A stretch of DNA of 61,609 nt, filler included. It is 4 parts of 4 records of this genome, joined end to end, with 100 filler letters (N's around TTAATTAATTAA, not from the genome) between each part and the next. Parts side by side here need not be neighbours in the genome. Positions count along the whole stretch, not along the records: positions 12,616 to 28,987 come from SRR22947727_4972; 3 more parts are not named here. One strand, written 5' to 3'. Both the position numbers and the translations under genes were made by a program. The notes under the pieces are model-generated. The model worked only from the letters and a program-made list of their open reading frames with translations, did no database searches and was not told where the DNA came from. Numbering within the stretch: position 1 is the stretch's first letter; each line of letters starts with the position of its first letter. Positions 12,719-31,855 of the stretch are shown in pieces.

Positions 12719-12752
12719 TCAATCAGCCGATTTCAACGATCGTCCAACGAGC

Positions 12753-12949: not shown

Positions 12950-14143
12950 GTGATTGACGCCGCTGTGACGAACCCGGTGTCGGAGCCCGGAGCTAATCCC
13001 CCCGCAGTGGGAGTCAACACCCGAGTGATTCATCACGGTGAAAGCTTTGCTGGAGAGACCGGGTCGGTGATGCCGCCGATCTTCCCCACCAGCACCTTTG
13101 CCCATGGCAACGCTGGCGGGTTCGATTACACCCGTTCGGGCAATCCCAACTTCCGCATCCTTGATTCAGTGCTGGCGTCGGTGGAAGGCTGCGACCACGC
13201 CACTGTGTTCGGCTCCGGTGTGAGTGCCATCACTGCCGTGGTGTCGCAACTCAAACAGGGGGATCTGGTGCTCTGTGAAGAAAACCTCTACGGCTGCACA
13301 GTGCGGTTGTTCGAACAGGTGTTCGCAAAATTTGGACTGCGCACCGAATGGGTCGACTTCACCAAGCCCGAAGCTCTCGCCTCCATTCGGAACAGTCAGC
13401 CGGCCATGGTTTGGCTGGAAAGCCCCACAAACCCACTGCTGAAGGTGATTGACCTACAAGCCGTTTGCGCCGTAAGCCAACCGCTGGGCATTCCGGTTTT
13501 AGTGGACAACACCTTTGCCACAGCACTGGTTCAACGTCCGCTGGAGCTTGGTGCAACGCTTTCGCTCACCAGCACCACCAAATACATCAACGGACATTCC
13601 GATGCCCTCGGCGGTGTCGTCTGCACCAATGATCCGGACTGGCATCAAAAGATGGTGTTTTCCCAAAAGGCTCTGGGATTACAACCCTCCCCCTTCGACT
13701 GCTGGCTGATCACCCGCGGCATCAAGACACTGCCACTGCGACTGAAGCAACAAATGGCGAATGCCGCTGCCTTAGCTGATCAATTGGCGTTGCATCCGAA
13801 GGTGGAATGGGTGCGCTACCCCCACCGCAACGACCATCCTCAGCACGCTTTGGCCCAACGACAGATGAAGGGTGGAGGAGCCATCGTGACCGTGAGCTTC
13901 CAGGCCAGCCAAGAGGAAACCTATCGACTCTGCAAGCAATTGAACTGGTTCACGATGGCCGAAAGCCTTGGTGGCATTGAAAGCTTGATCTGCCACCCAG
14001 CCACCATGACCCATGCCGCCGTGTCGGCTGAGGTGAAGGCCAAACTCGGCATCGACGACGGCCTGGTGCGCTTCTCGGTGGGCTGCGAAGACTTGGTGGA
14101 TCTACAGGCCGACCTAGCGCAAGCCCTGGAGCTGCTGGCGTGA
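12950..14143 (+). CDS. metB: Cystathionine gamma-synthase/lyase (Cys/Met metabolism PLP enzyme)
   Basis: YTRSGNP, WLESPTNP, VDNTFAT, STTKYINGHSD (PLP Lys), AESLGG. Confidence 0.88.
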   Translation: MIDAAVTNPVSEPGANPPAVGVNTRVIHHGESFAGETGSVMPPIFPTSTFAHGNAGGFDYTRSGNPNFRILDSVLASVEGCDHATVFGSGVSAITAVVSQLKQGDLVLCEENLYGCTVRLFEQVFAKFGLRTEWVDFTKPEALASIRNSQPAMVWLESPTNPLLKVIDLQAVCAVSQPLGIPVLVDNTFATALVQRPLELGATLSLTSTTKYINGHSDALGGVVCTNDPDWHQKMVFSQKALGLQPSPFDCWLITRGIKTLPLRLKQQMANAAALADQLALHPKVEWVRYPHRNDHPQHALAQRQMKGGGAIVTVSFQASQEETYRLCKQLNWFTMAESLGGIESLICHPATMTHAAVSAEVKAKLGIDDGLVRFSVGCEDLVDLQADLAQALELLA

Positions 14144-15615: not shown

Positions 15616-15695
15616 AAATGCCCTTAACAACAGAAGTTTTTATGGCCTAAATCACTAAGTTGACAAAGTAGGGCCCATCCCAATTCAGACGCGTT

Positions 15696-16682
15696 ATGTC
15701 TCGCATTTACGACGACAACAGCCTCGCCATCGGCAACACCCCATTGGTGAAACTGAATCACGTCACCAAAAACTGCAAAGCCACCGTTCTGGCGAAGATC
15801 GAAGGGCGCAATCCCGCTTACAGCGTGAAGTGCCGCATCGGCGCCAACATGATCTGGGACGCAGAAAAGAGCGGCAAACTCACCAAAGACAAAGTGATCG
15901 TTGAGCCCACATCAGGCAATACAGGCATCGCCTTGGCCTTCACCGCGGCGGCGCGTGGCTACAAACTGGTGCTCACCATGCCGGAGTCGATGTCGATCGA
16001 ACGGCGTCGTGTGATGGCTGTAATGGGGGCCGAAATCGTGCTAACCGAGGCGGCCAAAGGCATGCCAGGGGCGATTGCGAAAGCCAAGGAGATTGCCGAT
16101 AGCAATCCCACGAAATATTTCATGCCAGGGCAATTCGATAACCCGGCCAATCCAGAGATTCACTTCAAAACCACAGGTCCTGAAATCTGGAACGATTGCG
16201 ACGGTGCCATCGACGTCTTCGTTGCTGGCGTAGGCACTGGCGGCACGATCACCGGTGTATCGCGCTATATCAAAAATGAAGCCGGTAAAGCGATTGAATC
16301 CGTCGCAGTAGAACCAACCAATAGCCCGGTGATCACCCAAACCATGAATGGTGAGGCCGTCAAGCCAGGTCCCCACAAGATTCAGGGCATCGGCGCTGGC
16401 TTTATCCCCAAGAACCTCGATCTCTCCGTTGTCGACAAAGTGGAGCAGGTGACCAATGAAGAATCCATCGCTATGGCGCTGCGATTAGCGGAAGAAGAAG
16501 GCCTGTTGGTTGGCATCTCTTGCGGTGCTGCGGCAGCTGCGGCGATTCGCCTCGCGGAACAGGATGCCTATGCAGGCAAAACGATTGTGGTGGTTCTACC
16601 CGACCTCGCTGAACGTTACATCTCCTCCGTGATGTTCGCTGAGGTGCCAACCGGCATCATTGAACAACCCGTCGCTGTCTGA
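15696..16682 (+). CDS. cysK: Cysteine synthase A
   Basis: [37 protein letters not shown]. Confidence 0.96.
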
Positions 16683-16734
16683 CAGATAGACTCCGAAAAA
16701 TAGAGCGAACGATCCCCGGAACTAATTAACCGAG

Positions 16735-16772
16735 AGGAGCATCACGACTTTCATCGTGATGCTCCTTTTTTT
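16735..16772 (+). terminator. Rho-independent terminator after cysK
   Basis: aggagcatcacga / tcgtgatgctcct perfect 13-bp stem followed by a T run. Confidence 0.9.
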
Positions 16773-16839
16773 GAAGGTGAGGACAATTATTCTTGAACGT
16801 CCAAACACGTGTTAGAAGAAGTCAACTGACCAATTTGCA

Positions 16840-17370
16840 ATGGGCGCTCAACAGGTGGTGAGCCTTGGCAGCCTTGAATCAGATTTAGGACTCTCAAGAG
16901 TTGACTTGCTATTGATCATGCGAGAACTGGGCATCGAACCAGTCAGGAAAGGAATGCGAACGTGGATAAAACAGGAAGAGACCAACGAGATTTACACTCA
17001 CTTAGGACGCAACAACCATGAAGAGCCTCTCATTGCCGAAATAGTTACTATTGATACGCAGGAGCAATTCGATTCACTTGCTTTTTCCAGAAACCAAACC
17101 ACCAAAGAAATCAACGACGGTAACGAGAGCTTCAAAACCTATTCGCAGCTGAGGTTGCTACGGGAGCGAATAGAGCTGTTGGACCTGCTTAGAACTACAT
17201 CGATAGAAGTCCCCACGTCCGAGCTGTGTGCCCTTCTCAACCTGAAAAGAGTACCAACCCTTACAGAATTGCCAAATCACAAGACTGGCTTTAGTCGCAT
17301 GGGCCTTGTATTTGAAAAGATATCCAAAGAAGGCAATAGGCTTTCATGGAAAGTAGCGAGAGAAACATAA
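16840..17370 (+). CDS. Hypothetical protein, possible N-terminal HTH DNA-binding domain
   Basis: SLGSLESDLGLSRVDLLLIMRELGI resembles an HTH. ATG start, 176 aa. Confidence 0.55.
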   Translation: MGAQQVVSLGSLESDLGLSRVDLLLIMRELGIEPVRKGMRTWIKQEETNEIYTHLGRNNHEEPLIAEIVTIDTQEQFDSLAFSRNQTTKEINDGNESFKTYSQLRLLRERIELLDLLRTTSIEVPTSELCALLNLKRVPTLTELPNHKTGFSRMGLVFEKISKEGNRLSWKVARET

Positions 17371-17457
17371 GCAGGCGAGTAAAAAACCAAGTTCGTACCA
17401 TGGATCACACATATATTAAAAAAAAAAATTAAAATAAACGATCAACAGGGCACCAGC

Positions 17458-18051
17458 ATGGCTGGATTTTCGACAGCGCTTGCAACCGTGGCGCTCTCAG
17501 GAATCGGGGACAAAACTTTTTTGGCAGCCATTGCATTGGCAGCACGCCATCGAGCAAGGTGGGTCTTTACCGGAAGCGTATCAGCGTTGACCATCGGTGC
17601 AGGAATCTGGATCGCAACTGGAGTTTGGCTTCAAACATTTGTAGCAATAGAAACGATACAATTGGTGGCAGGGATAACATTTTTAATTTTCGGAATCAAT
17701 GCTCTACTCGACGCGTTCAAACGTCACAAAATTGACCTACAAGCAAAGAATAGAGAAAAAAAATCCTCAAATATTGCTCTACCCGCCAATGCAATCATAC
17801 GAAATTCATTTACGACAACATTTTTAGCCGAGTTTGGCGACAAGACACAATTAGCACTTCTAGGCCTTGCAGCAGTACCAAACTTATCAGCTATAAGCAT
17901 CTTCTCCGGTGCAGTGGCAGCGAATATTTTATTAGCCGTGATCGCGGTAACAGCAGGAAAATACCTCAAAGAAATTATATGTCAAAAGAAATTAACCTTC
18001 TTCAGTGGAATCCTATTTATCGTACTTGGTTTAAATATATTAATAACATAA
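17458..18051 (+). CDS. GDT1/TMEM165 (UPF0016) family Ca2+/Mn2+ transporter
   Basis: Two repeats GIGDKT and EFGDKTQ in a hydrophobic multi-TM protein. Confidence 0.88.
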   Translation: MAGFSTALATVALSGIGDKTFLAAIALAARHRARWVFTGSVSALTIGAGIWIATGVWLQTFVAIETIQLVAGITFLIFGINALLDAFKRHKIDLQAKNREKKSSNIALPANAIIRNSFTTTFLAEFGDKTQLALLGLAAVPNLSAISIFSGAVAANILLAVIAVTAGKYLKEIICQKKLTFFSGILFIVLGLNILIT

Positions 18052-18065
18052 AACTGTAGAATCAA

Positions 18066-20144
18066 TCAAAACCTTGAGCTAGAAACAGACAAATTTCTAA
18101 TTGTGTTGATTTCAGCGAGCAATGGGGCTGCATTAAACAAAACCAGTAATTGGAGAGGGGTGAAGGTAGCAAAAAGGGATAAACCAGTAAGCAATACAGA
18201 GGATATAACGAGTAAAGTATTGTTAGCCTGTGATGAACGTGAAAAATTCCTACTCAACACGACCAACCGTGAAAGCCATAATAAATCTCCAGCCAAAATA
18301 ATATCGCAAACTGTTTTAGAGATAAAACCTTCTTCATCATAATTAAAACCAATGGCAACATCAGCACAAGCGAGAGCTGGTATATCAACCACAACATCAC
18401 CAAGAACAGCAACCTTCCCAGAAGAAGATTGGCGACAATTAGCAACGCATTGAAGCCTAGAGTTAGACTCATCTAAACTACCACAATGAGACCCGAATGT
18501 TGAAATTGAAACACCGAGACTGCTTAATTGACTAGAAACAAGTAGATAATCAGAATCGGGAACCCATCGCAGCCTTAGCTGAGAAGAATAAACGAATCCT
18601 TGTGCAATATGCACAATAAGATCATCCCCATCATTATAGAATTTCAATAAAAAAGTAGGATGCCCAACAAGACTTACCAGACAAGATTCGTGAGATGAAT
18701 TGACAACATCAAACTCTAAAGACTGAATAGGTATAGCATCAAAGAAGAGATTCTCTAGGATGCCCCAAAAAACTGTGGAAACATCAGCCTGAAGATATTG
18801 AGCAATAGACCAAAGGATCTGAAGAGGCTCAATAGTATAGTTCAAGGAATTATTAGAGATAACAGATGAGACGATCTGGTAACTACCAAAGTGATGCAAT
18901 GCGTCTATGCTTATCAATATGTGTTCAACTTCTGAAAGGGTAGGTAAAACAAGTACGTCATTAACATGCACACCATTTAACTGCATATCAAACAAAGCTG
19001 TTGCAGAAGAAGAAATCCGTGCACGTTCACAATCTTTTGAAGGAGAAAAGGATAAAATACCAATTGCACGTTCGGTTAAACCATTAAACAGGGACAAAAA
19101 ACCCAATCCCAATTGAAGAGGGGGATAAATTTTATGGTAAATAGATTGGGTCTTCTTTTGAAAAGAAGAAGCACTAAACTGATCTAAATGACGATCTTCA
19201 ATCTGAAAGTCAGAAATATCATCAAAAGCCTCTAAAACCTTACATTTAGCAAAACCATGCAGGACAGAAGATCCAAAGGGAAGTTGATCACCTCGCTCCA
19301 CTTTTATTGGAAGCGAAGAACCATTGCTGAGACTATTCGACACAACGAGTTCCCCATCTACAACAATTGAAGGGAGATAAACATGATTTCCAGAATTTAA
19401 GTTATAGCAATCACCAACAGAAACATCACTAAGGGGAGACAACACAGTAGTATCATTATTTTGGATACATGGAATCATTACACTCGATTTAAGACGATCT
19501 AAAAAATCAAGAAACTGAGCACTAGATCCATCAGTACTTTCATTAAGAGACTGTATGGCAGAAGTTGAACTACCAATGAAGCGGTCAACAAGCAACTCTT
19601 TGGACAAACCAGAAACGATTAATGATGTTGATAAAACAAGCTCTGCAGATGATTCAGGAAGCAACTGAGAGGACGACTCATTTGCAAACCGATCAGCAAC
19701 TTGATCGAAAAACTCTCGGATTAAAGGCCATATCAAAACTGCAGATGTAACACTAAGGATCCATGGAGAAATAACAATAAAAGTATCAACCAACAAAACT
19801 GAACCGAGAACAAAACTACGGTTGAGTGCAGATTTCAATGAAGGGTTATGAACAATATTCGTAAATTGATTTTCATCAGACAATATTGTCTCAAGAGTAG
19901 AGTCTGCGAATGGATCAATAAAACAGCCTTCAAGTAGGGATAATAATGAACCTAATTCACCTGGAGGAAAACGAATAACAACTGTGCTAGAGAAGGTATT
20001 AATACGGAATCCATATAACCAATGAGTTCGATGTAATAGAGCCGCGCAATGCTGTCTTAGACCGGGAAATCTAGATAGATCAGGATGATAGACCCTAACC
20101 CTGTCTTTCAATTCACTTCGAAGGATCCAAGGGGTAGATGACAT
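18066..20144 (-). CDS. Degenerate P1B-type ATPase-like protein with N-terminal HMA_2-like domain
   Basis: Domain order of a P1B ATPase, but TGE is replaced by SNGS, DKTGT is absent (ILISIDAL) and GDGxND is GDVVVD. ALACADVAIG...CDIIL is retained. Confidence 0.7.
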   Translation of the reverse strand: MSSTPWILRSELKDRVRVYHPDLSRFPGLRQHCAALLHRTHWLYGFRINTFSSTVVIRFPPGELGSLLSLLEGCFIDPFADSTLETILSDENQFTNIVHNPSLKSALNRSFVLGSVLLVDTFIVISPWILSVTSAVLIWPLIREFFDQVADRFANESSSQLLPESSAELVLSTSLIVSGLSKELLVDRFIGSSTSAIQSLNESTDGSSAQFLDFLDRLKSSVMIPCIQNNDTTVLSPLSDVSVGDCYNLNSGNHVYLPSIVVDGELVVSNSLSNGSSLPIKVERGDQLPFGSSVLHGFAKCKVLEAFDDISDFQIEDRHLDQFSASSFQKKTQSIYHKIYPPLQLGLGFLSLFNGLTERAIGILSFSPSKDCERARISSSATALFDMQLNGVHVNDVLVLPTLSEVEHILISIDALHHFGSYQIVSSVISNNSLNYTIEPLQILWSIAQYLQADVSTVFWGILENLFFDAIPIQSLEFDVVNSSHESCLVSLVGHPTFLLKFYNDGDDLIVHIAQGFVYSSQLRLRWVPDSDYLLVSSQLSSLGVSISTFGSHCGSLDESNSRLQCVANCRQSSSGKVAVLGDVVVDIPALACADVAIGFNYDEEGFISKTVCDIILAGDLLWLSRLVVLSRNFSRSSQANNTLLVISSVLLTGLSLFATFTPLQLLVLFNAAPLLAEINTIRNLSVSSSRF

Positions 20145-20168
20145 GGCTGATGAGATCAGAAAAAAGTG

Positions 20169-20696
20169 TCAGAGAACGAAAGGACGACGAACTGAGATTG
20201 CCATTTCCAGGAGAGACGTAGCCAGAATCATCAACCAGATTCCGGGAGATAATGGCAAAAACAATCCGAAAAAAGAGAATATGAAGACAATGCCAGATGT
20301 GAAAAGCAAAGATAGGGATAAGCAAATAGAGATGCCATTAAACAAAGTATTGAGTACGTTCGACCCAAGAGAAAATGAAAAAGTATTCCGGTCATGGATG
20401 ACCACAACGGGACTAAGTGGAAGAACTGACACATCAAAACCGAGTTGGTGGAGTTGCTTAGAGACTCCTTGGTAAACATAGGAAGAACGGCTAGGGAGAG
20501 AAGGCATACAATTTAATGATTGAATAACAAGAGAAGATGCACTAGGATTAATCCTTACAGACCAAGAGTGAAGTGGAAAAAACTGATGAAGATGATCTAA
20601 GAGAATATCCCAAGGAACCGCAAGAGGTCCAGTTAATTTGAATCTCCAGCGCTGGGAAGTTTGATGAACAAGATCTAACTGACAAAGCATATTCAA
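20169..20696 (-). CDS. HMA_2/CoBaHMA-like domain protein with C-terminal membrane hairpin
   Basis: LVHQTSQRWRF...VRINPSASSLVI, then a TM segment GLFLPLSPGIWL. Abuts the ATPase stop codon. Confidence 0.65.
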   Translation of the reverse strand: MNMLCQLDLVHQTSQRWRFKLTGPLAVPWDILLDHLHQFFPLHSWSVRINPSASSLVIQSLNCMPSLPSRSSYVYQGVSKQLHQLGFDVSVLPLSPVVVIHDRNTFSFSLGSNVLNTLFNGISICLSLSLLFTSGIVFIFSFFGLFLPLSPGIWLMILATSLLEMAISVRRPFVL

Positions 20697-23170
20697 GCTG
20701 GCGCGATGCTAAAGGTTTTAAGTTCGAGAGAGTATTCCCAAACCCAACCATCCGGATCATGCTGAGCAATCCAAGTCGTGAAATCATTTCGCCGGCGTTG
20801 AGCTGAAATTTTTTGATGTGTGACGCCAAGCCGTTTCGCTAACTCAGAAATAGATAAAGGTTCAGATGACAATCGAGTGGAAACTTGATCAGAACTGTCG
20901 AAGTTAGTGTCTGAGGAAGATAAACTTGATGACGGAAGAGGTTTGGCTTTGAAGCCAAGAGCTCTGATTGCATTCCCTGCAGCAACAAGAGCAGATCCAT
21001 TATTTAAAAATACGGCAGCAATTGGACTGACAGGTAAGAAGGTTCCTATCACCAAAGCTGAAAGATTTGGAACACCAACAATTCCGATATTTTGTTTAAC
21101 AAGGGCAAACGTATGACGTGCAAGATCTTGAGCAACGATCAAATCAGAAACCTTGTCATTGGTAAGAACAATGTCTGCTGTTTCTCTAGCTAGATCACTG
21201 CCTGAAGCAAATGAAACTGAGACATCGGCATATGCAAGAGCTGCCGAATCATTTATACCATCACCCACAAAAGCAACTTTCTTTCCTTGTGAGGTGTAGT
21301 ACTTGACCAATTCAGCTTTTTGATCAGGAAGTGCATCGGCATGTACTTCATGGGGCTGAAGGCCGATACTTTCGGCAACAGAATGAGCAACAGTAGCAAT
21401 ATCTCCTGTGAGCATATGAGCTTCTATTCCACGTCGATGTAGCTCAGCAATCATGTCACAAGTATCTGGTCGAATCTGATCTAGCGCATAGTGAATGCAA
21501 GCTAGAGAACCATCGATGGCAAGATAAATTGGAGTTGCAACAGAAAGATCAGGGCGAGCTGTGAAAACAGGGAGCACGACACCCTCATCTTCAAGCAATT
21601 TGAAGTTTCCTAGAAGAACCCTCTTACCGTAGATCTCAGCAATAACACCACGACCTACTTTATAATCCCAACTATCGCAATCTGAAGCAGAAATTTGTAC
21701 CGACTCAGCTGAATCACGAATAGCTTTTGCAATCGGATGGTTGAGTCCTTGTTCAAGAGAAGTGGAAATTTGAAGAAGTTCTCTATACAATGAATCATCA
21801 ATTTGTTTTATTTGTTGGCCGCTCGGCTCAAAAGCATCAAGATGAACAATAGAAGGATGACCTTCAGTTAAAGTTCCTGTCTTATCAAAAATCACAACAT
21901 CAACATCCACCAGTTGCTCCAAAGCACGACCACTACGGATCAACAAACCCTGGCTACTGGCTCTAGACAGAGCAGCCATAATTGCAGTGGGAACAGAGAC
22001 ACGTAAACCACTACCAAGATCAAACATCAAAAGAGATGCGGCTTGAGCGATACTTCCACCACTGATGAATAGGGAAAGTCCTGCAAGTGCAAGCGTTGGG
22101 AGTACAAATTTATTTGCAATATTAGAGGCAAAATTTCCAACTCTTGTATCAAAGACAGGAGCTTCTTCAATCATTTTTGTTATTTGTCCTACACGAGTTG
22201 CATCTCCAACAGCAGAAGTTTTAACAACGATACTACCCTCTAGAACAATAAATCCAGCAAGGATTTCATCTCCTGGCCGTGACATTCTTGGGACCGATTC
22301 GCCAGTCAATTTAACAACATCTAACGAAGCTACTCCCGATTCGATTACACCATCAATAGGGACCTTGTCTCCAGGCAAAAAAGAAACACGATCACCAGCA
22401 GAGAGTTCAAAACTTGAGACAATGACCTCTCCTTGATCAGTGATTAATCTCACATCTGATTGAAGACTCGAAACCAGATCAGTATTCGATGAATGAGCAA
22501 TCCGCTGCGTAGCATCTCTTACAGCTTCACCACCTTCGACCATTGTGATCATCATCGCAGGGCCTAAGAGAAAACCCTCCAAGCTGTGGAGAAGGACTGC
22601 AAGAGAATCAAGAAAGTCAACATTAATCTTTCGATCTTTTTTCAAACCATCCCATGCTCTTCGAAAACTAAGATGAGCAGAACCTATAATAAAAAAACCA
22701 ATAGCCAGGGGTGGAAGAGCAAGTGGACCAGCCAAGAGAGCTAACCCAAGCGAACAAACTGGAAGTATTATTCTTGTTGGTACAAACTTCTCGTCATCAT
22801 CTTCAAGTTCTGCGGATGCAGAAACCTGCTTAGCCAGCTCAGGAACGAAAGGGATATTTACGACATCCTCTGGCAGGCTCTTCAACCAAGTTGATGAGTT
22901 AATTGTCTGTCCATCAGTGAAAATGACAACAAAGCATCTGGCCCATCCATTGAATCGTGCTGTTTTAACATGGGGCAATGCAACCAGATATCGTTGAAAA
23001 TTATCTATATCGTCCAATCTAGAGTCGACCCTAAAACGCAATCTATGTGACGATGAATGCAAAATAGCATCAACAAAGCGTGGAAAATCATGCTTAGCTA
23101 TCGATCGTTTGCCATCCACCTCACCGTCAACAACGCTGAATGTGGAGGGAATTTGGTAAGAGGCTGCCAT
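20693..23170 (-). CDS. Heavy-metal P1B-type ATPase (P1B-6/FezB-like)
   Basis: LTGES, FDKTGTLT, HP, MLTGD and GDGINDS are intact. No CPx motif (FDLGSGLRVSVP instead). N-terminal HMA_2-like ILHSSSHRLRFR. Confidence 0.9.
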   Translation of the reverse strand: MAASYQIPSTFSVVDGEVDGKRSIAKHDFPRFVDAILHSSSHRLRFRVDSRLDDIDNFQRYLVALPHVKTARFNGWARCFVVIFTDGQTINSSTWLKSLPEDVVNIPFVPELAKQVSASAELEDDDEKFVPTRIILPVCSLGLALLAGPLALPPLAIGFFIIGSAHLSFRRAWDGLKKDRKINVDFLDSLAVLLHSLEGFLLGPAMMITMVEGGEAVRDATQRIAHSSNTDLVSSLQSDVRLITDQGEVIVSSFELSAGDRVSFLPGDKVPIDGVIESGVASLDVVKLTGESVPRMSRPGDEILAGFIVLEGSIVVKTSAVGDATRVGQITKMIEEAPVFDTRVGNFASNIANKFVLPTLALAGLSLFISGGSIAQAASLLMFDLGSGLRVSVPTAIMAALSRASSQGLLIRSGRALEQLVDVDVVIFDKTGTLTEGHPSIVHLDAFEPSGQQIKQIDDSLYRELLQISTSLEQGLNHPIAKAIRDSAESVQISASDCDSWDYKVGRGVIAEIYGKRVLLGNFKLLEDEGVVLPVFTARPDLSVATPIYLAIDGSLACIHYALDQIRPDTCDMIAELHRRGIEAHMLTGDIATVAHSVAESIGLQPHEVHADALPDQKAELVKYYTSQGKKVAFVGDGINDSAALAYADVSVSFASGSDLARETADIVLTNDKVSDLIVAQDLARHTFALVKQNIGIVGVPNLSALVIGTFLPVSPIAAVFLNNGSALVAAGNAIRALGFKAKPLPSSSLSSSDTNFDSSDQVSTRLSSEPLSISELAKRLGVTHQKISAQRRRNDFTTWIAQHDPDGWVWEYSLELKTFSIAPA

Positions 23171-23205
23171 TATTTGTTGAGACTAAAGTGTGTATAAGAA
23201 GAAGA

Positions 23206-23541
23206 CTATTCAACGGTTACATCAGTCATTGGTGTGGATTTTTTGTGGATAATGTTTTTTGATTCAGAGCCAGATGCTTCAGTACCTTCAGACTTAGCTT
23301 CCTCAACTAAGTCGATAAAAGACTCTGCTACCTCTGCAGCACCCTTAGCAACACCTTGTACAACCTTGCCTGCAGTACCAGCAGCTACTAGCCCAACTTT
23401 CACACCCGTTTTGGCCATCGTTCGACCTGTTTGTCCCATCGAATCTCCAAGCTCTTGATTACCCATCTTGCGAACAACTGGAGCAAGAGCCATCAAAGCG
23501 GCACCTGCACCAAAAGCAGCAATAGTTTCTAGCTCGAACAT
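23206..23541 (-). CDS. DUF5132-like small membrane-associated protein, copy 1
   Basis: Gly/Ala hydrophobic N-terminus, AKTGVKVG, ESFIDLVEEAKSE. Immediately upstream of the ATPase. Confidence 0.7.
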   Translation of the reverse strand: MFELETIAAFGAGAALMALAPVVRKMGNQELGDSMGQTGRTMAKTGVKVGLVAAGTAGKVVQGVAKGAAEVAESFIDLVEEAKSEGTEASGSESKNIIHKKSTPMTDVTVE

Positions 23542-23632
23542 TGTAATTACTCATTACAAGAAAATTCTACTACATAAGAAGCAGACTTAAGCTTATTTTC
23601 AGATAAACTGTCAGCGACAATAGAGTGTAATC

Positions 23633-24679
23633 TTGACTACAATCTTTAGCTCTGATCGGTATTCAACGCTACAGACTGCTGTTGAATCTGTGATCGGTTC
23701 TTCAACAGATGAGAGAATGAAGATACTTGACCTGACCGGTGAACGAGTCTTTAAATGTTTGAGACCTGGTTTGGAAATTGAATACTTTGATTATTATCAG
23801 TCAATTGAAAAAGTTTGGAGTGAGTTGTTGCCTCATGCTCTTGACTGGTGGAAGCCTTTAGGACTTGAAAATAATAATGCCATTGAACTTCCTGAACTCC
23901 CAGGCCTAGAAGACATATTAAAACTTACTGTTCTCGCTCGAGGAATAGAATCGGCCAGCAATAATAAGAATTTAATTGTACTTTTGCCGCCACCATTACA
24001 GGCCTTAAAAATACTTCGAATGGCACATCAAGGGCCTGAACTTATCGACGACATATTGGACCCATTGCTGAATTGGTGGGATTCAACCCGAGGATCATTA
24101 GCGACAGTCGAAAAACTTCTTAGGCTTAATCTTCCATCTTCAGCACAATTAAGACTCACAACTTCCTGGAAAGAGCGTATGAAGACTCTTCAAAGAATTA
24201 CTTCCGATCGAAAATTACACCATCTTATACTTTTATTCGATGGATACAACATGTCATCAGAAACAATCAAGACAAGGATTAGCACTTGTGGAATCCATGG
24301 GGTGATTCCGAGCCATATAATCATAGAAAGCCATGCAGAGAAGTCTCATGAATCGCTCTCCTCAAAAGATCTAAATGATCTAGTAGACATTAGTTTTTGC
24401 CAATCAATCGTTGATATTACGCCAATACTAAATAAAAAGAGCAATGCAGAATTAAAAATCTCGGCTCCAACGACAGAATATAATACAAAATCCTGCGAAT
24501 TAAAGGTTTTTCTTCCTTATATCTGCAAAGAAAAATTAACTATTAAGCAGCATTACGATCAAATTTATTTCATTTATCAAGGGAGTCGTAGAACAATTCC
24601 TTTACCAAAAAGTTGGGCCTCTTTAACATGCACACATGCAAAAATATCATCAGGATGGCTGAGTCTTGGATTTGGCTGA
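23633..24679 (+). CDS. Degenerate ArsA/Get3-like protein with C-terminal HSP20-like domain
   Basis: ELPELPGLEDIL motif. C-terminal LKVFLP...RRTIPLP....AKI..GWL.L.F resembles ArsA_HSP20. No GKGGVGKT P-loop. Confidence 0.7.
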   Translation: MTTIFSSDRYSTLQTAVESVIGSSTDERMKILDLTGERVFKCLRPGLEIEYFDYYQSIEKVWSELLPHALDWWKPLGLENNNAIELPELPGLEDILKLTVLARGIESASNNKNLIVLLPPPLQALKILRMAHQGPELIDDILDPLLNWWDSTRGSLATVEKLLRLNLPSSAQLRLTTSWKERMKTLQRITSDRKLHHLILLFDGYNMSSETIKTRISTCGIHGVIPSHIIIESHAEKSHESLSSKDLNDLVDISFCQSIVDITPILNKKSNAELKISAPTTEYNTKSCELKVFLPYICKEKLTIKQHYDQIYFIYQGSRRTIPLPKSWASLTCTHAKISSGWLSLGFG

Positions 24680-25078
24680 TGGCCTCCAACCCAGCCACCA
24701 TGCCATTAAAAAGAAGGGTGTCCCAGGAAGAATTGGCAAAATCCACCCAAGTAGAGCCAAAACTAACATCGCCTGTATAGATATCTTTTTAGTTTGATGC
24801 CCCACACGCTCAAGTTTGGTAGGAGGGAGTATTGGACCTTGAGGGTGTGTAGATAAAAAATATTGATCCAACCAAATTTGAATTTTAATTGCGTCAATAC
24901 GATGATCTTGGATAGAAACTACAACACAACCTTGACCTAAGGAAGACTGCCGAAGAATTAGATATGGATAATAGTATGAAAAGGTTGAGTTTAAAAATAA
25001 ATATTCTAAAGGCGATAAAGTGTTGGAGAAAATGAATCGCACCCGATTCGGTGTTACGTGCTTAATGCTGATCGTCAA
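24650..25078 (-). CDS. HMA_2-like domain plus DUF454/YbaN-like membrane hairpin
   Basis: IKHVTPNRVRF at the N-terminus and LGWILPILPGTPFFLMAWW at the C-terminus. Confidence 0.65.
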   Translation of the reverse strand: MTISIKHVTPNRVRFIFSNTLSPLEYLFLNSTFSYYYPYLILRQSSLGQGCVVVSIQDHRIDAIKIQIWLDQYFLSTHPQGPILPPTKLERVGHQTKKISIQAMLVLALLGWILPILPGTPFFLMAWWLGWRPSAKSKTQPS

Positions 25079-25081
25079 AAG

Positions 25082-25396
25082 TTAAGCTTTTGCTGTACCG
25101 GTTTTTACCTTAGAAGTTTTAGACGGCTCAGCCAGATCAGCTTTGGCTTCAGCGAGAATGTCGCCAAAACTTTCTCCAATCTCATTGACTCCTGATTTGA
25201 GACCAGAGAAGGCGCCCGTGATGGTTGAACCAATAACAATACCCACCTTGAGGCCTTGCTTTGTCAAACCACGCCCAACACCAGAGATGGTTCTTGTCAC
25301 AGAGCTTTCACGTCCAGCAACAGTCGACACAACAGGTGTAATCGCCACGAGAGCGGCTCCAAGACTGAAGGCAACCAGATACTCGAGCTCGAACAT
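25082..25396 (-). CDS. DUF5132-like small protein, copy 2
   Basis: Starts MFELE like copy 1 (ATG at 25396). TKQGLKVG and ESFGDILAEAKADL motifs. Confidence 0.7.
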   Translation of the reverse strand: MFELEYLVAFSLGAALVAITPVVSTVAGRESSVTRTISGVGRGLTKQGLKVGIVIGSTITGAFSGLKSGVNEIGESFGDILAEAKADLAEPSKTSKVKTGTAKA

Positions 25397-25515
25397 GAAG
25401 GCCACTATTAAAGTAAATATAATATAGCTAGGCATGTCCCCAAAAGAAGTATCATAGAGCACAAAAAGAATGAGATTGCTTGAATTTCAGCACACACTAA
25501 ATGATCAATATTAAC

Positions 25516-26178
25516 TTAGCTGACTTGAGTGGCTAATGACAGAATAATCGAAAGAACAGTTGATGAATAAAGGAAAGAAGCCAAGCAATGAATGATTACA
25601 ACTCGACGAACAGAAGAGTCCTTAATCCCACAATCTGTCATAGAATAAGTTAAACCAATCGAATAGGAAATATATAAAAAATCACTAAATGTAGGTTCCG
25701 ATCCCTCGAAGATAAAACCTTTTGACTCTTCATTGTTGACTAATTCAAGCGGATTCATATCAAAGTATCTTTTTGCGTAATACAAAGCAAATCCATTATG
25801 GAGCTCAACCCAAGTAAGAAAGACGGCAGTAAAAGAAATGAAGACATGAAAAGAGTTGGGCAAAACATCAGATGGATTATGCAGATCAGCAACGCAAAAC
25901 GAGAGCAATCCCAAACTAAGAAAAACTAGAGCGATTGTTTTCTCAGCAACAAGAATTCCTTTGGCGCTATACTCAACGAATAAAAGTCGTGTCGATCTTT
26001 GATCAAGAAGCCAGCCTTGTTTAACCATTTGAAAAAGATCCCAACCGAGTGAGAGCATAATTGCGACAGTTAAGCCCTCCTTTGGGGTAAGAATAGGAAT
26101 AAGGACAAGGCTTGAAAAAAAACCAAGAGCAATAGAGCGAATCAATCGATATTGGTCTGATAGAGATTGATATCTCAT
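25516..26178 (-). CDS. DUF1345 family membrane protein
   Basis: H..FALYYAKRYF, F.FEGSEPTFSDFLYISYSIGLTYSMTD, VRRVVIIH motifs. Confidence 0.8.
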   Translation of the reverse strand: MRYQSLSDQYRLIRSIALGFFSSLVLIPILTPKEGLTVAIMLSLGWDLFQMVKQGWLLDQRSTRLLFVEYSAKGILVAEKTIALVFLSLGLLSFCVADLHNPSDVLPNSFHVFISFTAVFLTWVELHNGFALYYAKRYFDMNPLELVNNEESKGFIFEGSEPTFSDFLYISYSIGLTYSMTDCGIKDSSVRRVVIIHCLASFLYSSTVLSIILSLATQVS

Positions 26179-26188
26179 AGCATCACAA

Positions 26189-27559
26189 TTAAGATAAAGA
26201 CTTAGAAGAAATAATCAATTTGTCGTGAATCATAGGGATGATTAAAGATTTAATTATCATCGAAAAAATCACAACACCGCACACAATATCAACCATGAAG
26301 ATAACACTACTTTTCTGGATAAGCTCAACACCCTCAAGCCCAAATGTCTCCTCTAATAATGCTGGAGCTGTAACAATTAACGCCATTGAAATCGCTCCTT
26401 TGGGACTCCAAGATGATAAAATTTTAAATTCTTCTGGTTCGATTGAATCACCTCTGAAAAACATAAATACAGATGCAGGACGGACCAAGATAACCCCAAG
26501 CCAAACCAGTATTGCAATAGGAAGATGGTGAAAAAATGATGTTGCTTCCATACCTAAACCAATAGCAAAAAATAAAATAGCTTCAGAAGCAATGTTCAAA
26601 GATTCAAGCTCCTCGGTGAGGAACTCAACTTCCTCAGAGGAAGCACTACTACGATAAGAAATAGAGGTGAATATGCCCATGACAAGAGCACTTAAATAAC
26701 CACCAGAACCAGCCAAGTAAAAAGATACAACATAGCCAATGAAAGCAAATGAAATAGCAATTAAAACCAGCTGCGGCCTGGATGTTACGATGTTTCTAAT
26801 AACAAACATCAGCAAATAACCTAAAATAAAGCCTGATAATATTCCGACAAGTACACCCTTTACGATAGATATAAATATATTTTCTTGAATTAGAATAGAA
26901 TCATTGGCATAAATATGCATCCAAGCTAATACCAGCAATTCTGCGAAAATCAAGGATATAGCGGCAGATACGGATGTCTCAATCTTAAATATATCGCTGA
27001 TAACCTCACGAAAATCTGCAATCTTATTGGATACAAATGTAAAAGAATTCCAATCTTGTACTGCTAGAGAGAAGACTATTGCAGTTGCAATTAACCACAG
27101 CTTTTGTGGCTCTACATCAGGAAGAAGATTAAAATAAACTTGAAGGAAACCGAAACCAAGTCGCAATAAAATTAGCCCTATAATCATACTGAACAGTGTG
27201 CCAAAAACTGCAAGAAGCAGTGAGCTAATCAATATTTTGCTCCGTTTCAGTAAGCTTTTTGAAAAAGCGAGTCCACTAAAAAACAAAAGAATCGTCACAG
27301 ATACAACATGGATTTCCTCTAGAGGAAATGTTTCTAAATTAAATCCTGTGACGTTGTGAAAGAATAAGCCCGAGAAAAATAAAAAAATCGATCCGGGAAT
27401 GCCCAATTTCAAACCTACTTTATCAAAAATAATCCCAATTATTAACAATAAGGACAATGATAATAAGGCGTAGACAAATGAAAATTGCAGCGTTTCAACA
27501 GAATATGAGGTGTCAGACGTAGATATTTCAGAAATCAGTGGCAGCCAAAAACTCAGCAT
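26189..27559 (-). CDS. Cation:proton antiporter (CPA1/NhaP-like), divergent
   Basis: About 12 TM segments; LLFFSG, GSGGYLSALVMGI, LFFAIG, VRP and PKGAISMAL motifs. Confidence 0.8.
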   Translation of the reverse strand: MLSFWLPLISEISTSDTSYSVETLQFSFVYALLSLSLLLIIGIIFDKVGLKLGIPGSIFLFFSGLFFHNVTGFNLETFPLEEIHVVSVTILLFFSGLAFSKSLLKRSKILISSLLLAVFGTLFSMIIGLILLRLGFGFLQVYFNLLPDVEPQKLWLIATAIVFSLAVQDWNSFTFVSNKIADFREVISDIFKIETSVSAAISLIFAELLVLAWMHIYANDSILIQENIFISIVKGVLVGILSGFILGYLLMFVIRNIVTSRPQLVLIAISFAFIGYVVSFYLAGSGGYLSALVMGIFTSISYRSSASSEEVEFLTEELESLNIASEAILFFAIGLGMEATSFFHHLPIAILVWLGVILVRPASVFMFFRGDSIEPEEFKILSSWSPKGAISMALIVTAPALLEETFGLEGVELIQKSSVIFMVDIVCGVVIFSMIIKSLIIPMIHDKLIISSKSLS

Positions 27560-27785
27560 AAATAAGCTGAAATATAAAAAATCTTACTATAAAAAATTTT
27601 CCAAAACTGTGCCCTATGCTACCTTCAGTTCCGTAGTTGACAAAACTGTTCACTTGCACTGTCATGGTATATAAAGTCACATTGTCATTAACAAATCAGC
27701 TGTCAGCATCCACTAACCGAAATCAGCCAGACTCCAGATCAAAGGCAATTATAATTAACTAGGAGTTTTAGGGAGGTTTATTCCA

Positions 27786-28424
27786 TTGTCTGACTATCTT
27801 GACTCTGACATTTCTCCGTGTAGCCCTTATTTAATTATTGATGAGCTTAAGAGGGGTTTTGAGAGATTTAAATCTGGTCGAACTGACCATCCCCATGCCA
27901 CAGCAGCTCGTGTTCATCAGCTTATTGGAGGTCAGCATCCACAAGTCGCTCTGCTCGCATGTTCTGATTCTCGGGTTCCAATTGAAGTTATTTTTGATGC
28001 AGGATTCGGAGATTTATTTGTTATCCGTAATGCGGGAAATACCAATACATTTGGCTCAGCAGGTTCAATCGAGTATGCAGTTTTAGACTTAAAAGTTCCC
28101 GTGCTTGTAGTCATGAGCCACCAGGGCTGCGGTGCTGTAAAAGCAGCTTTCTCAAAAGATAGTATTTTTTCCAAATCCCTGACAGAATTGGTAGAAGATA
28201 TTAAACAGGGTTTAATTAGGTATAATATTGATATCAACGATTCAACAACCTACCAGGAAGCATGTATCCGTCATGCAGCGATTACCGCAGAATCATTAAT
28301 GAAAATAAGTAAAGATATTCATGATGCTGTCCGTCAGAAACGATTATTGATTCAACCAGCTTATCTGCACATCGATCCAATCCAAATTGATTGGCTCACT
28401 CCTTACTACGGAGATAATTTCTGA
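27786..28424 (+). CDS. Beta-class carbonic anhydrase
   Basis: [23 protein letters not shown] and HQGCGAV zinc-ligand motifs. Confidence 0.93.
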
Positions 28425-28987
28425 GCGGTCGTTAGGACAGCGTCCGGAGAAATCCACATGGCATCGCCATAGGAAAAAAACCGGTACTCGCGATCAATCG
28501 CCTCGGCATACAGCGCCAACAGCTTCTCGCGACCAATCAGGGCACTCACCAGCAGCAACAAGGAACTTTTCGGCAGATGGAAATTGGTTAACAGTCCTTG
28601 AACAACCCGAAATTGATAGCCCGGTTGAATCACCAGATTCACCGGTCCGGTGAATGGTTTCAACACGCCACCATGCATTTGTGCTGCCCCCTCAAGGGCA
28701 CGAACACTGGTGGTTCCAACGGCAATCACGCGGCCACGGCACTGCTGAATCGCCTTCACCACTGACGCATTCACTTCAATCCATTCGCTGTGCAATGCCA
28801 ACTGCGTGAGATCTTCTGTTTCCACAGGGCGAAACGTACCCAGCCCCACATGCAGCGTGATGCGCGTCAGCTCGACGCCCTTGCTCTGCAAACCAGCCAA
28901 CAGTTCATCGCTGAAATGAAGGCCTGCCGTGGGTGCCGCAACAGCACCGGGTCGATCCGCATAACGGGTCTGGTAACGCTCGGCATC
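28406..28987 (-). CDS. queA: S-adenosylmethionine:tRNA ribosyltransferase-isomerase (5'-truncated)
   Basis: [46 protein letters not shown]. Confidence 0.96.
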
Positions 28988-29087
28988 NNNNNNNNNNNNN
29001 NNNNNNNNNNNNNNNNNNNNNNNNNNNNNNNTTAATTAATTAANNNNNNNNNNNNNNNNNNNNNNNNNNNNNNNNNNNNNNNNNNNN
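28988..29087. other. Artificial contig-joining spacer
   Basis: N44 + TTAATTAATTAA + N44. Confidence 0.98.
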
Positions 29088-29088
29088 T

Positions 29089-31854
29089 GATTCTGATTTG
29101 AAAGCAATTGCTGATCTTAGAAACGATTTAGATTCTGAATCAGCTGTTATCAGAACTTTATCAAGCGCTGGCTCATCACCTTTCACTGATTCTGATTCAA
29201 TTCATAGAATAGCTCTTAAATCTAACCCTATTAGTTTAGCGGATTCAAGAGCATTAAGTATAGGCAAATCGTTACCTGACTCAGGTACTTCGCAAGTAGG
29301 TGATTTCTTTATTAGCTGGGATTCAGAAGAAACTATTTACCAGTTAAGACCTGCAACTCAATATAATACAAATATGTTATCTGTAGGTTCTTTTTCATCT
29401 AACAGTGTAATTTATACTTCTGGTACTCCTTCAGGTGCAAACAATGCTACAACACCTAGTACGTTTCCTTCACCTATAGGAGCTGGTAGCTATACAAGAT
29501 CTTTTCATACCAATCACTCTAACGGTGGAGGTTACATAACATTTACGTTTTCAACTCCTACACCAGTGGTTTATTTCTATGTTACTGGTAGTGATGCAAA
29601 CGCTAGAATTCAAAGAATTAATTATGAAAACGGGGACTACGCTTTAAACGCATCTAATTCTAATCCTTCTTTTTCAGAAAACATTACGTGGTATGGAACA
29701 ACCCAAAGTAAAGTCGTAAACGGTAATGGCTCTTTTGATGCTAGACATCCAGATGACGCGTCTATTAAAGTAACCAGTATTCAGTTTAGAACTTATGACA
29801 GATCATGGGTCAACTATTATTGGTTGTTCATGAGTTCAGCAAATGAGTGGGTACCATGTGGTAGAATTTTAGATAGTGATTCCATCAATAAAATTATTGC
29901 AGAAAACAGTTCAGGTTTTGCAACTACTTCTTTTGATTCAGATCAAGTTGTATCCATAGTAAACGAAAACTCCGGAGTTAACTTTATTGTAGCTAACAAC
30001 GGATCGGCAGCTTATACATTTACCGGTGATGGTTTTCCATCTGGTGTAGATAATCCTACCTTATATCTAAAAAGAGGTCATACATACAGATTTAAACTTG
30101 CAGTTACGGGTCACCCATTTGAGATTAGATCTTCAAATGGAGGTTCTGCATACAGTACAGGGGTCACTAATAACTCAGCACAAACTGGTGTGACTACATT
30201 TACTGTACCTATGGACGCTCCTGATACTTTAGTTTATCAATGTACTTTACATTCAGGTATGGTTGGTACAATTAAAATTGGAAGGCAAGGTTTTGATTCA
30301 GATCAGATAGTTGCTATTATTAATGAGAATACTACCGCGGGTTCAATTGATTCTGATGTAGCTGCTATAGCTGCTTTAAGAAGAGATGCTGACAGTGATA
30401 GTATTCGTATTCAAGAAATAGCTACTTCGCTTGAACAGATTAATGAACTGGTTGATTCCGATCTCAAAGCAATTGCTGATCTAAGAAATGACGTTGACTC
30501 TGATTCCATTAAGTTACAAGCATTACAAGAGACTGTTGCTGGTTTAAGCGTGGGCGCAGGTTTTGATTCAGATCAAGTTGTAGCTATTATAAACGAAAAC
30601 ACAAGCTCAGGTTCTGGTTCTGGAATGACAGATTCAGATCTAAAAGTTGTAGCTGATCTTAGAAACGAAGTAAATGCTTTAAATTTATCAGCCGGCTCCA
30701 TCGACCAAAACGCTACATTTACAACATTCAAGTATAAGACAACAAATGGTCAAACAACAATTAGTGGTGTTGATAGAGACAACCAAACTCTAAGCTACGT
30801 CGCTGGTAGTATTAATGTATTTCTCAATGGTGTACTGCTAAACGATTCTGATGACTATACTGCATCTAATGGTAGTTCAGTAGTCCTTCAATTAGCAGCT
30901 GACTCAGATGATGTTGTTGTGATACAAAAAGTAGCTTCTACTTTAGATTCAGAAACTGTACAATCAATATGGAATGATAATTATCAAGCACTTGATATTT
31001 CAAGATTTGATTTTACAGCTATACAAAATCAAACAACATTTACTGGAGCTGATGATAACGGTGCTACTCTTAGTTACTTTACTAATAAAGTTCAAGTATA
31101 TTTAAACGGTATCTTATTATTAAGAACTACAGACTACACTGATACATCTGGTACAAGCATAGTTCTTACTCAAGCAGCTGATTCAGATGATAAATTATCT
31201 ATTATCAAATACATAGGTCAAACAGCAACTGAAAATCTCAATATTACAAGATTCACATATGGTTTTGGCGATGCAGGTAATGGTACAGTAGGTACAACTA
31301 ACATATCTGGTAATGATGATAACGGTAACTTGTTATCATATGGTGTAGGTAAAATACAAGTCTTTTCTAACGGTATATTGTTAGAAGACTCAGAGGATTA
31401 TATTGCTAATGATGGATCTAGCATTATACTTCAACAAGGCGCTGACTCTGATGATAAAATAAGCATCATCAAATACAACGGTGCAATTCAAAGAGTTGAT
31501 GGTGTAGGTTTTGATAGCGATCAAGTTGTAGCAATAGTAAATGAAAATGCTAGCTCTGGTACTACCACTTTAGCACCTACTGATTCTGACTATACATCTT
31601 CAGCAGGTCAGACACTAATTATGGATACAAGCAGTTGGCCAAGAACAGTTACTCTTCCATCATCTGCTTCTTTAGGAGATTTAATTAGAGTTATTGACGG
31701 AACAGGTTCTGCAGCTACAAATGTAATTACTGTTAATAGAAACGGTCATAAACTTCTTGGAGGAGATAGTGACATGTCTATAAATATTAATAGATCAGGT
31801 ATTTCATTGATATATTATAACACAGCTCAAGGATGGATTTTACAGGACAACTAA
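29089..31854 (+). CDS. Phage virion fibre/structural protein with DSD repeats and a cupredoxin-like domain (5'-truncated)
   Basis: FDSDQxVxIxNEN x4, DSDLKxxADLRN x3, three VFLNG-type beta repeats, HPF...YQCTLHSGM domain, phage fibre-type C-terminus. Confidence 0.75.
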   Translation, partial: DSDLKAIADLRNDLDSESAVIRTLSSAGSSPFTDSDSIHRIALKSNPISLADSRALSIGKSLPDSGTSQVGDFFISWDSEETIYQLRPATQYNTNMLSVGSFSSNSVIYTSGTPSGANNATTPSTFPSPIGAGSYTRSFHTNHSNGGGYITFTFSTPTPVVYFYVTGSDANARIQRINYENGDYALNASNSNPSFSENITWYGTTQSKVVNGNGSFDARHPDDASIKVTSIQFRTYDRSWVNYYWLFMSSANEWVPCGRILDSDSINKIIAENSSGFATTSFDSDQVVSIVNENSGVNFIVANNGSAAYTFTGDGFPSGVDNPTLYLKRGHTYRFKLAVTGHPFEIRSSNGGSAYSTGVTNNSAQTGVTTFTVPMDAPDTLVYQCTLHSGMVGTIKIGRQGFDSDQIVAIINENTTAGSIDSDVAAIAALRRDADSDSIRIQEIATSLEQINELVDSDLKAIADLRNDVDSDSIKLQALQETVAGLSVGAGFDSDQVVAIINENTSSGSGSGMTDSDLKVVADLRNEVNALNLSAGSIDQNATFTTFKYKTTNGQTTISGVDRDNQTLSYVAGSINVFLNGVLLNDSDDYTASNGSSVVLQLAADSDDVVVIQKVASTLDSETVQSIWNDNYQALDISRFDFTAIQNQTTFTGADDNGATLSYFTNKVQVYLNGILLLRTTDYTDTSGTSIVLTQAADSDDKLSIIKYIGQTATENLNITRFTYGFGDAGNGTVGTTNISGNDDNGNLLSYGVGKIQVFSNGILLEDSEDYIANDGSSIILQQGADSDDKISIIKYNGAIQRVDGVGFDSDQVVAIVNENASSGTTTLAPTDSDYTSSAGQTLIMDTSSWPRTVTLPSSASLGDLIRVIDGTGSAATNVITVNRNGHKLLGGDSDMSININRSGISLIYYNTAQGWILQDN
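29932..31548 (+). repeat. Dispersed ~39-nt coding repeat (FDSDQxVxIxNEN), 4 copies
   Basis: Copies begin near 29932, 30292, 30562 and 31510. Confidence 0.85.
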
Positions 31855-31855
31855 T

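Follow-up and report, generated by a model that had tools for sequence, protein, structure and literature searches.

The island described here occupies positions 16840-28424 of a 61.6-kb window, the whole stretch of DNA analysed (61,609 nucleotides), and holds 12 intact open reading frames (ORFs) at 40.0% GC. By sequence and gene order, it is a marine, calcyanin-less form of a conserved picocyanobacterial cluster. In most freshwater-type relatives the cluster carries ccyA, the calcyanin gene and marker of intracellular amorphous calcium-carbonate granules. The island includes a P1B-type ATPase without the CPx motif. We propose that its products use ATP to sequester a hard divalent cation, probably Ca2+, in a bounded space, with control of pH and carbonate, a proposal that we regard as evenly poised between right and wrong. 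Window proteins were searched against Pfam and NCBIfam profiles and judged against curated cut-offs; orthologue counts refer to 22 picocyanobacterial loci (L081-L102), several of which end at contig ends. The genes of the island are as follows.

g01, 16840..17370, + strand: conserved protein of 176 amino acids (aa); orthologues at 10/22 loci
g02, 17458..18051, + strand: GDT1/UPF0016 divalent cation/proton antiporter (PF01169, 1.5e-33, 115.4 bits against a cut-off of 27); 3/22 loci
g03, 18066..20144, - strand: predicted catalytically dead P-type ATPase paralogue, 692 aa, with a CoBaHMA-like N-terminus; 16/22 loci
g04, 20169..20696, - strand: CoBaHMA-like domain and C-terminal DUF454-like helical hairpin; 16/22 loci
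g05, 20693..23170, - strand: P1B-type ATPase lacking CPx; N-terminus CoBaHMA-like, C-terminal tail conserved (TIGR01525)
g06, 23206..23541, - strand: DUF5132-like small membrane protein; 21/22 loci
g07, 23633..24679, + strand: predicted Get3d fold ending in an alpha-crystallin domain, P-loop absent; 20/22 loci
g08, 24650..25078, - strand: CoBaHMA-like domain and DUF454 C-terminal hairpin; 19/22 loci
g09, 25082..25462, - strand: DUF5132-like small membrane protein; 21/22 loci
g10, 25516..26178, - strand: DUF1345 membrane protein (PF07077, 1.6e-27); 15/22 loci
g11, 26189..27559, - strand: Na+(K+)/H+ exchanger, CPA1/NhaP-like (PF00999, 3e-15); 5/22 loci
g12, 27786..28424, + strand: beta-class carbonic anhydrase (PF00484, Pro_CA, 1.3e-29); 18/22 loci

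An initial annotation had described the region as an AT-rich island of 11 genes. The island stands, its GC content lying well below that of its flank, and the count rises to 12 with the ORF at 16840-17370. The annotation had also listed a CPx-less P1B ATPase, a second ATPase-like protein and an ArsA/Get3-like protein, all of which the evidence below bears out, and GDT1, NhaP-like, DUF1345 and beta-carbonic anhydrase proteins, all of which score above curated cut-offs. Its four HMA_2-like domains and two DUF5132-like proteins hold up in profile-profile comparison and family alignment respectively, and fall short in Pfam searches (for the HMA_2 domains, in the g04 and g08 families).

The pump and its degenerate paralogue

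The ATPase g05 matches the E1-E2 (2.8e-29) and HAD (1.6e-23) families and scores 434.7 bits with TIGR01525, for which the cut-off is 346.25. DKTGT, TGES, GDGIND, D[LF]G[TS]G, PNLSAL and NNGS are each present in 12/12 members of its family, and, judged by these intact catalytic motifs, g05 is an active P1B-type ATPase. Its fourth transmembrane helix (TM4) reads MFDLGSG at the position of the CPC of HMA4. All 73 CPx ATPases in our alignment have C-P-[CG] where the g05 family has DLG(S/T)G, the window pump reading DLGSG and its relatives DLGTG. In the same alignment, DLG(S/T)G falls on D-Y-S-C-A and x-C-P-C-A, N702 on the K/N of TM5, and NNGS on HNGT or on D/M-x-x-S, such that D384, S/T387, N702, N723, N724 and S726 sit at the CPC, K/N and D/M ligand positions of the 73 CPx pumps. 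Because the aligned candidate ligands are all oxygen donors, general coordination chemistry would favour a hard cation at this site over Cu+, Zn2+ or Cd2+. An Rfam search of 15600-28987 gave no match up to E 1, and hence no riboswitch as a clue to the cation. Past the last membrane helix, g05 carries a tail (residues about 760-825; 20693-20900) in which W800, D805, P806, G808, W811 and Y813 are invariant (n = 12) and which has weak helix-turn-helix-like Pfam matches (DUF746, 1.7e-3).

The second ATPase-like protein, g03, matches just two of these families, each weakly (E1-E2, 1.4e-8; TIGR01525, 49 bits against the cut-off of 346), and DKTGT and GDGxND are each found in 0/15 members of its family. 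By these residues, g03 is a real but catalytically dead ATPase paralogue.

Relationship to ferrosome pumps

As the initial annotation had supposed, g05 falls outside the ordinary Cu/Zn/Cd exporters. A tree of 92 ATPases places it in a CPx-less clade of 19 (support 0.999), apart from 73 CPx pumps; the sample is biased, as the 80 non-picocyanobacterial pumps came from one generic-pattern locus search that yielded mostly CPx pumps. The clade is made up of picocyanobacterial pumps, those of Nostoc and Baaleninema (DLCTG, DFMTG), planctomycete and Rhodopila pumps (DFGTG), and the pump of locus L049, which carries DYSCA and HNGTT. TM4 D[Y/F]SCA and TM6 HNxxT are the signatures of P1B-6 pumps, or FezB (Grant et al., bioRxiv 10.1101/2020.01.10.902569), and relatives of the L049 pump are encoded in typical fez clusters alongside small hydrophobic proteins, an HMA_2 protein and one resembling rubrerythrin. 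A second, unbiased scan took the best 150 relatives of the pump among 1.84 billion representative proteins. Pumps with D-x-x-[TS]-G account for 68 of these and for nearly all of ranks 1-70, the first standing at rank 1; 18 carry D[YF]SCA (P1B-6), the first at rank 71; 21 were scored as CPx-type, one of them in truth DLGTG, the first at rank 75; another 18 have other TM4 motifs and 25 no readable TM4. On these sequence comparisons, g05 is a member of the D-x-x-[TS]-G family, and the next-nearest group in the searches is P1B-6 FezB. This D-x-x-[TS]-G family is large, most of the 68 representatives have an N-terminal H..R.R motif, and we found no name for it in the literature consulted. A locus search with a single ATPase as query recovered no relative.

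This kinship raises the question of whether the island encodes a true ferrosome, a membrane-bounded iron phosphate store like those of fez clusters, an explanation we consider very improbable. The pumps share a clade and have in common an N-terminal HMA_2/R-rich domain, the TM4 Asp and a TM6 xNG[ST] motif. Fez clusters also hold more R-rich/HMA_2-domain proteins, a number of them anchored in the membrane, along with small hydrophobic proteins and in some cases another ATPase (Grant et al.), and the island resembles some of them in its small membrane proteins and second ATPase. However, both P1B-6 signatures fail in g05: TM4 reads DLGSG instead of D[Y/F]SCA, with Asp alone in common, and TM6 reads NNGSA instead of HNxxT, its second Asn and Gly shared with the HNGTT of L049. 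The R-rich motif of the N-terminus is present (HRLRFRV, with H13, R18 and R20 invariant in the family alignment), and it is not unique to FezB (Grant et al.). Pfam and NCBIfam searches found no Fur, Feo or ferritin-like (DUF2202) gene among the 12 island genes, whereas L153, taken as the fez locus for reference, has one gene resembling rubrerythrin by Pfam and another resembling Fur as read from the translation; the island carries carbonate and pH genes instead, in an oxygenic phototroph, while FezB hosts are described as mostly anaerobes (Grant et al.). Nor are the small GxxxG proteins of fez clusters demonstrably homologous to the small proteins of the island, the DUF5132 family aligning with the GxxxG protein at L153:8419-8721 at 3% probability in hhalign. 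Of the "ferrosome-like" character proposed in the initial annotation, kinship and architecture are retained and membership is not. In two fez loci, L154 (G424) and L155 (G456), a second P-type ATPase lies ~4 kb from the FezB-type pump; its TM4 reads SCPCA, not D-x-x-[TS]-G, and FezH (Grant et al.) is a possible identity for it.

Candidate membrane partners

Four island proteins begin with a domain related to the N-terminus of calcyanin. In hhalign comparisons with the N-termini of 14 picocyanobacterial calcyanin-type proteins, g08 reached a probability of 93.6% (E 2.1e-7), g04 91.2% (E 1e-6), g05 88.6% and g03 82.6% (E 9.7e-6); the N-terminus of g05 also matched, at 95.9% (E 5e-9), a protein from a fez cluster with an above-threshold Pfam HMA_2 domain. 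The g04 and g08 families align with each other at 97% (E 1.3e-10) and on this evidence are paralogues of one architecture. Traits of the CoBaHMA domain include an additional strand, beta0, in which a His is conserved, basic residues in beta1/beta2 and no CxxC (PMC8890360). The g08 family has H7, R12 and R14 invariant, as the g04 family has R16 and R18, with H11 nearly so, and CxxC occurs in none of the four N-terminal domains in the translations of g03, g04, g05 and g08. At the level of sequence, both the CoBaHMA residue signature and homology to the N-terminal domain of W-type calcyanins are present. In hmmscan searches, Pfam HMA_2 (PF19991) matched 0/30 members of the g04 and g08 families; we do not count this against a CoBaHMA assignment because the calcyanin-type protein of L085 goes unmatched as well, the model being too insensitive in this lineage. 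DUF454 matches were obtained for 16/16 g08 family members, all under the gathering score, and for 7/14 members of the g04 family. Aligned with a single fez HMA_2 protein, the g08 family reached 18% over 24 columns in hhalign.

An AlphaFold2 model of g08 (predicted local distance difference test score, pLDDT, 85.3) shows an extra N-terminal strand, two helices and three more strands, followed by a helical hairpin. Foldseek found nothing in the PDB at E <= 0.001 with this model. In a wider structure search the best match was NFU1 (Z 7.2), and HMA domains scored Z 5.2-6.5, among them GolB (Z 6.5, root-mean-square deviation 2.0, 59 residues aligned), all below the guide value of Z 8. These model-based searches are at most compatible with an HMA fold.

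The small proteins g06 and g09 share a Gly/Ala-rich N-terminal hydrophobic stretch, and they align together and with a DUF5132 member from Nostoc that scores 63.9 bits. Alone, g09 matches DUF5132 (PF17195) at 8.1e-5 and 23.1 bits, under the cut-off of 25, and g06 has no Pfam match. The conserved start of g09 is probably the methionine of MFELE, residue 23. The Nostoc member belongs to a three-gene module in Nostoc sp. DedQUE12a (L001, 7942-12518), in which it accompanies a CoBaHMA-motif protein of 411 aa and a CoBaHMA-headed DLCTG ATPase, so that the pairing of pump and DUF5132 protein extends beyond picocyanobacteria.

The AlphaFold2 model of g07 (pLDDT 84.9; predicted template modelling score 0.85) has as its best Foldseek match NosGet3d (8egk_A, E 5.7e-18, TM-score 0.72/0.70), with AtGet3d also matched (8elf_A, E 8.4e-16); the family profile matches 3igf (1.3e-10), and g07 itself matches PF17886 (2.2e-6). 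The likeness to Get3d (NosGet3d/All4481 and AtGet3d; PMC10248533) includes the C-terminal alpha-crystallin domain. In contrast to Get3d, which has a conserved P-loop and ATPase activity (PMC10248533), the g07 family has the Walker A motif G....GK[ST] in 0/16 members, and GK[ST] occurs in the first 60 residues of none. As modelled, g07 has a Get3d fold without a P-loop. A predicted complex of two g07 copies with g08 scored 0.00, which argues neither for nor against binding.

The link to calcyanin

Both ccyA and intracellular carbonate granules have been reported in the marine strain RS9917, and Synechococcus sp. Lanier holds an atypical calcyanin (Benzerara et al., PMC8890360). The Lanier locus (L124) has an ORF of 281 aa, with a CoBaHMA motif and Gly-zipper blocks, lying between the DUF1345 gene and the DUF5132 and ATPase genes, and the Vulcanococcus cluster has an ORF of 333 aa with calcyanin architecture. 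Genes resembling ccyA are present on 13/22 of loci L081-L102. Among 401 sampled genomes of the family, the ATPase was found in 36 (scored at E <= 1e-150) and a ccyA-like gene, with the Lanier query, in 23, of which 22 also have the ATPase (Fisher p = 9e-26, not corrected for relatedness). In 19/22 genomes with both, the two genes are 0.5-2.8 kb apart; of the other three, two are complete genomes in which they are ~0.4 Mb apart and one has them on separate contigs. A protein homologue search with a calcyanin-type query returned 31 proteins, all unnamed or "hypothetical", which allowed no cross-check by name.

In the ccyA-bearing form of the cluster (the Vulcanococcus, Cyanobium and Lanier group; L081-L128), orthologues of the island genes stand in the same order as in the window: beta-carbonic anhydrase, DUF1345, DUF5132, CoBaHMA-DUF454, Get3d-like, DUF5132, ATPase, CoBaHMA-hairpin and dead ATPase. 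The calcyanin gene adjoins the first DUF5132 gene in that form, and the GC content resembles that of the flanks, whereas the marine form has no ccyA, is 40-45% GC in a genome of 57-62%, and adds NhaP and GDT1 genes. The initial annotation had raised the possibility of a ccyA-independent organelle; independence of ccyA holds for the marine form and fails for the cluster as a whole, since most freshwater-type relatives carry the gene.

A further likeness is seen in the ccyA neighbourhood of Microcystis aeruginosa PCC 7806, which holds two DUF5132 genes, a CoBaHMA-DUF454 gene, a further, CoBaHMA-only protein and a cation/proton exchanger, and whose products Bruley et al. (bioRxiv 10.1101/2024.07.07.602159) proposed as candidate partners in the formation of intracellular carbonate granules. 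Unlike the island, that neighbourhood has ccyA, and its exchanger is of the CAX type, in place of which the island has GDT1 and NhaP-like proteins together with beta-carbonic anhydrase. The P-type ATPase, the dead ATPase and the Get3d-like gene are not listed among the Microcystis neighbours in the parts of Bruley et al. consulted. The initial annotation knew of no description of such a system in marine Synechococcus. This must be qualified by the report of ccyA and granules in RS9917; for the cluster itself, we found no description in picocyanobacteria in the literature searched, and an earlier description is possible.

Proposed function

In the sequestration scheme that we propose, g05 would pump a hard divalent cation, most likely Ca2+, from the cytosol into a membrane-bounded space. 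The CoBaHMA partners, with their basic patch and no metal-binding cysteines, would mark or shape the membrane together with the two DUF5132 proteins; these partners would include g03 and the hairpin-anchored g04 and g08. The P-loop-less Get3d-like protein g07 may handle hydrophobic tails or lipid, the beta-carbonic anhydrase g12 would supply bicarbonate or carbonate, and the Na/H exchanger, GDT1 and DUF1345 proteins would balance protons and counter-ions.

Several points weigh against this scheme. The pump lacks the TM4 proline found in all 73 aligned CPx pumps, which casts doubt on canonical ion pumping. Also absent, as far as the window shows, is ccyA, with which granule formation correlates in the literature: tblastn with two calcyanin-type queries found none on the contigs of the window, leaving room for a copy elsewhere in the genome, nor the triple Gly-zipper domain of the calcyanin C-terminus, and ccyA was found in 0/7 marine-type genomes, where 3/3 positive controls were recovered. 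The counts of co-occurrence between ccyA and the ATPase are not phylogenetically independent. In favour of the scheme stand the synteny of the cluster, its link with ccyA, the intact motifs and oxygen-donor site of the pump, its kinship with ferrosome parts and the low dN/dS of those genes that allow its computation. A weak hint of transcription is added by three studies, in which four rRNA-depleted RNA libraries gave contigs matching parts of most island genes at 92-99% identity; these contigs may include DNA carry-over and do not rank the genes.

It is also possible, although in our judgement somewhat unlikely, that the island serves plain ion homeostasis at the envelope or thylakoid, as an accessory cassette against stress from salt, pH, Ca or Mn. 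Export of a cation would then take place over an existing membrane, without any compartment of its own and with pH regulated by the carbonic anhydrase and antiporters. GDT1, the Na/H exchanger and carbonic anhydrase are families of ordinary homeostasis, the marine form is without ccyA, and a strain-variable island at an insertion site is often the form taken by niche-adaptation cassettes. Export alone, however, leaves unexplained the conserved dead ATPase, the four CoBaHMA domains, the two DUF5132 proteins and the dead Get3d-like protein, as well as the fact that 19 of 22 relatives have ccyA adjacent.

Extending the sequestration scheme, we speculate that one ancestral toolkit, consisting of a P1B pump with a CoBaHMA head and no CPx, membrane proteins with CoBaHMA domains and small hydrophobic proteins, builds mineral or cation stores bounded by a membrane in bacteria of very different kinds, namely ferrosomes in anaerobes and carbonate granules in cyanobacteria, and that the marine island does so without calcyanin. 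We hold this extension, taken as a whole, to be unlikely. If it is true, some marine Synechococcus strains would possess an organelle new to description, in which Ca, Mg, Mn, Sr or Ba may be stored. The homology of the cluster to the ferrosome pump suggests a common origin of two bacterial storage organelles. Marine Synechococcus is one of the ocean's most abundant phototrophs, and sequestration of Ca, Sr or Ba in its open-ocean members, if real, would bear on marine element cycling. It is an open question how amorphous carbonate forms inside cyanobacterial cells: the sole known marker, ccyA, is not sufficient, granule formation requiring genes beyond it and taking place in a compartment for which the make-up of the envelope is unknown (Bruley et al., bioRxiv 10.1101/2024.07.07.602159). 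The cluster offers a list of candidate partners, comprising the pump, the dead pump, the CoBaHMA membrane proteins, the DUF5132 proteins, the Get3d-like protein and the carbonic anhydrase, and its marine form provides a natural experiment on this machinery without calcyanin.

Insertion site and conservation

The island lies wholly on the second of the four contigs that make up the window (12616-28987), between two flanking genes.

cysK, 15696..16682, + strand: left flank, core genome (PALP, 1.9e-76)
queA, C-terminal part, 28406..28987, - strand: right flank (PF02547 profile positions 175-322), followed by an N spacer from 28988

GC content is 58.3% on the cysK side (12950-16682) and 55.3% in the queA stub. 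We regard the segment as an island because cysK and queA are immediate neighbours in 26/30 loci of the family. The remaining four comprise one locus with the island, one with a DUF1345 gene alone between cysK and queA, and two without queA within the flank. In one relative with the genes directly adjacent (L156), cysK is 98% identical to that of the window. Other marine carriers have the island at the same site, at 42-45% GC against 57-62% around it, while in Vulcanococcus and Cyanobium-type genomes the GC content of the cluster equals that of its flanks at about 65% (65% vs 63%). Disruption of queA by the insertion was considered and rejected, as its truncation is the contig end. The lone DUF1345 homologue (36% identity; L159, G069:C1:1852173-1856156) is accompanied by no other cluster gene; it may be what is left of the cluster, or a small insertion that took place separately at this site.

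The core of the cluster is syntenic in about 35 picocyanobacterial loci, with gene order exactly as in the window in L151 and also kept in L104, and the wide co-occurrence of its genes agrees with what the initial annotation had expected. Compared with these two marine carriers, the island genes have nonsynonymous divergence (dN) of 0.20-0.75 with synonymous divergence (dS) mostly saturated, against a dN of 0.029 for cysK; this high divergence suggests that recombination has spread old alleles of the island, or that one hotspot has acquired it repeatedly. A decaying remnant, the marine cluster having become non-functional after loss of ccyA, is an explanation to which we attach very little weight. 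Loss of ccyA, the absence of catalytic motifs from g03 and g07, and the single DUF1345 gene retained between cysK and queA in L159 would fit decay. Against it, all 12 ORFs are intact, order is kept in both marine carriers, dN/dS is 0.08-0.21 for the few genes in which it can be computed (dS being saturated for most), and RNA-library contigs cover the cluster. The dead motifs, moreover, are ancestral to the cluster, because ccyA-bearing relatives have them too.

Other features of the island and window

The ORF g01 has no Pfam or NCBIfam match. Its nearest protein clusters (Atlas) are cyanobacterial hypotheticals, one of which has HTH_24 on 31% of its members, and a possible role of g01 as a helix-turn-helix regulator is only a lead. 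The translation of g12 contains CSDSR and HQGCG stretches, which we take to be the zinc-site motifs of the beta-carbonic anhydrase family. Promoter-like and terminator-like sites numbered 26 and 11, compared with 27.1 and 10.9 in shuffled sequences.

The four contigs are joined by N spacers with TTAATTAATTAA in the middle (12516-12615, 28988-29087 and 44664-44763), and features that seem to cross these spacers are artefacts of joining. AT-rich stretches beyond the spacers were considered as parts of the island and rejected, as they are phage contigs. The contig at 1-12515 (36.9% GC) carries siphovirus-type tail genes, including tape-measure-like, minor tail and tail assembly proteins and a match to central tail fibre J (2.4e-99), and that at 29088-44663 (36.3% GC) carries T4-like myovirus genes for portal gp20 (2.7e-164), tail sheath and baseplate wedge connector. 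The presence of two kinds of phage DNA alongside host contigs in one assembly could reflect an infected cell or a binning artefact.

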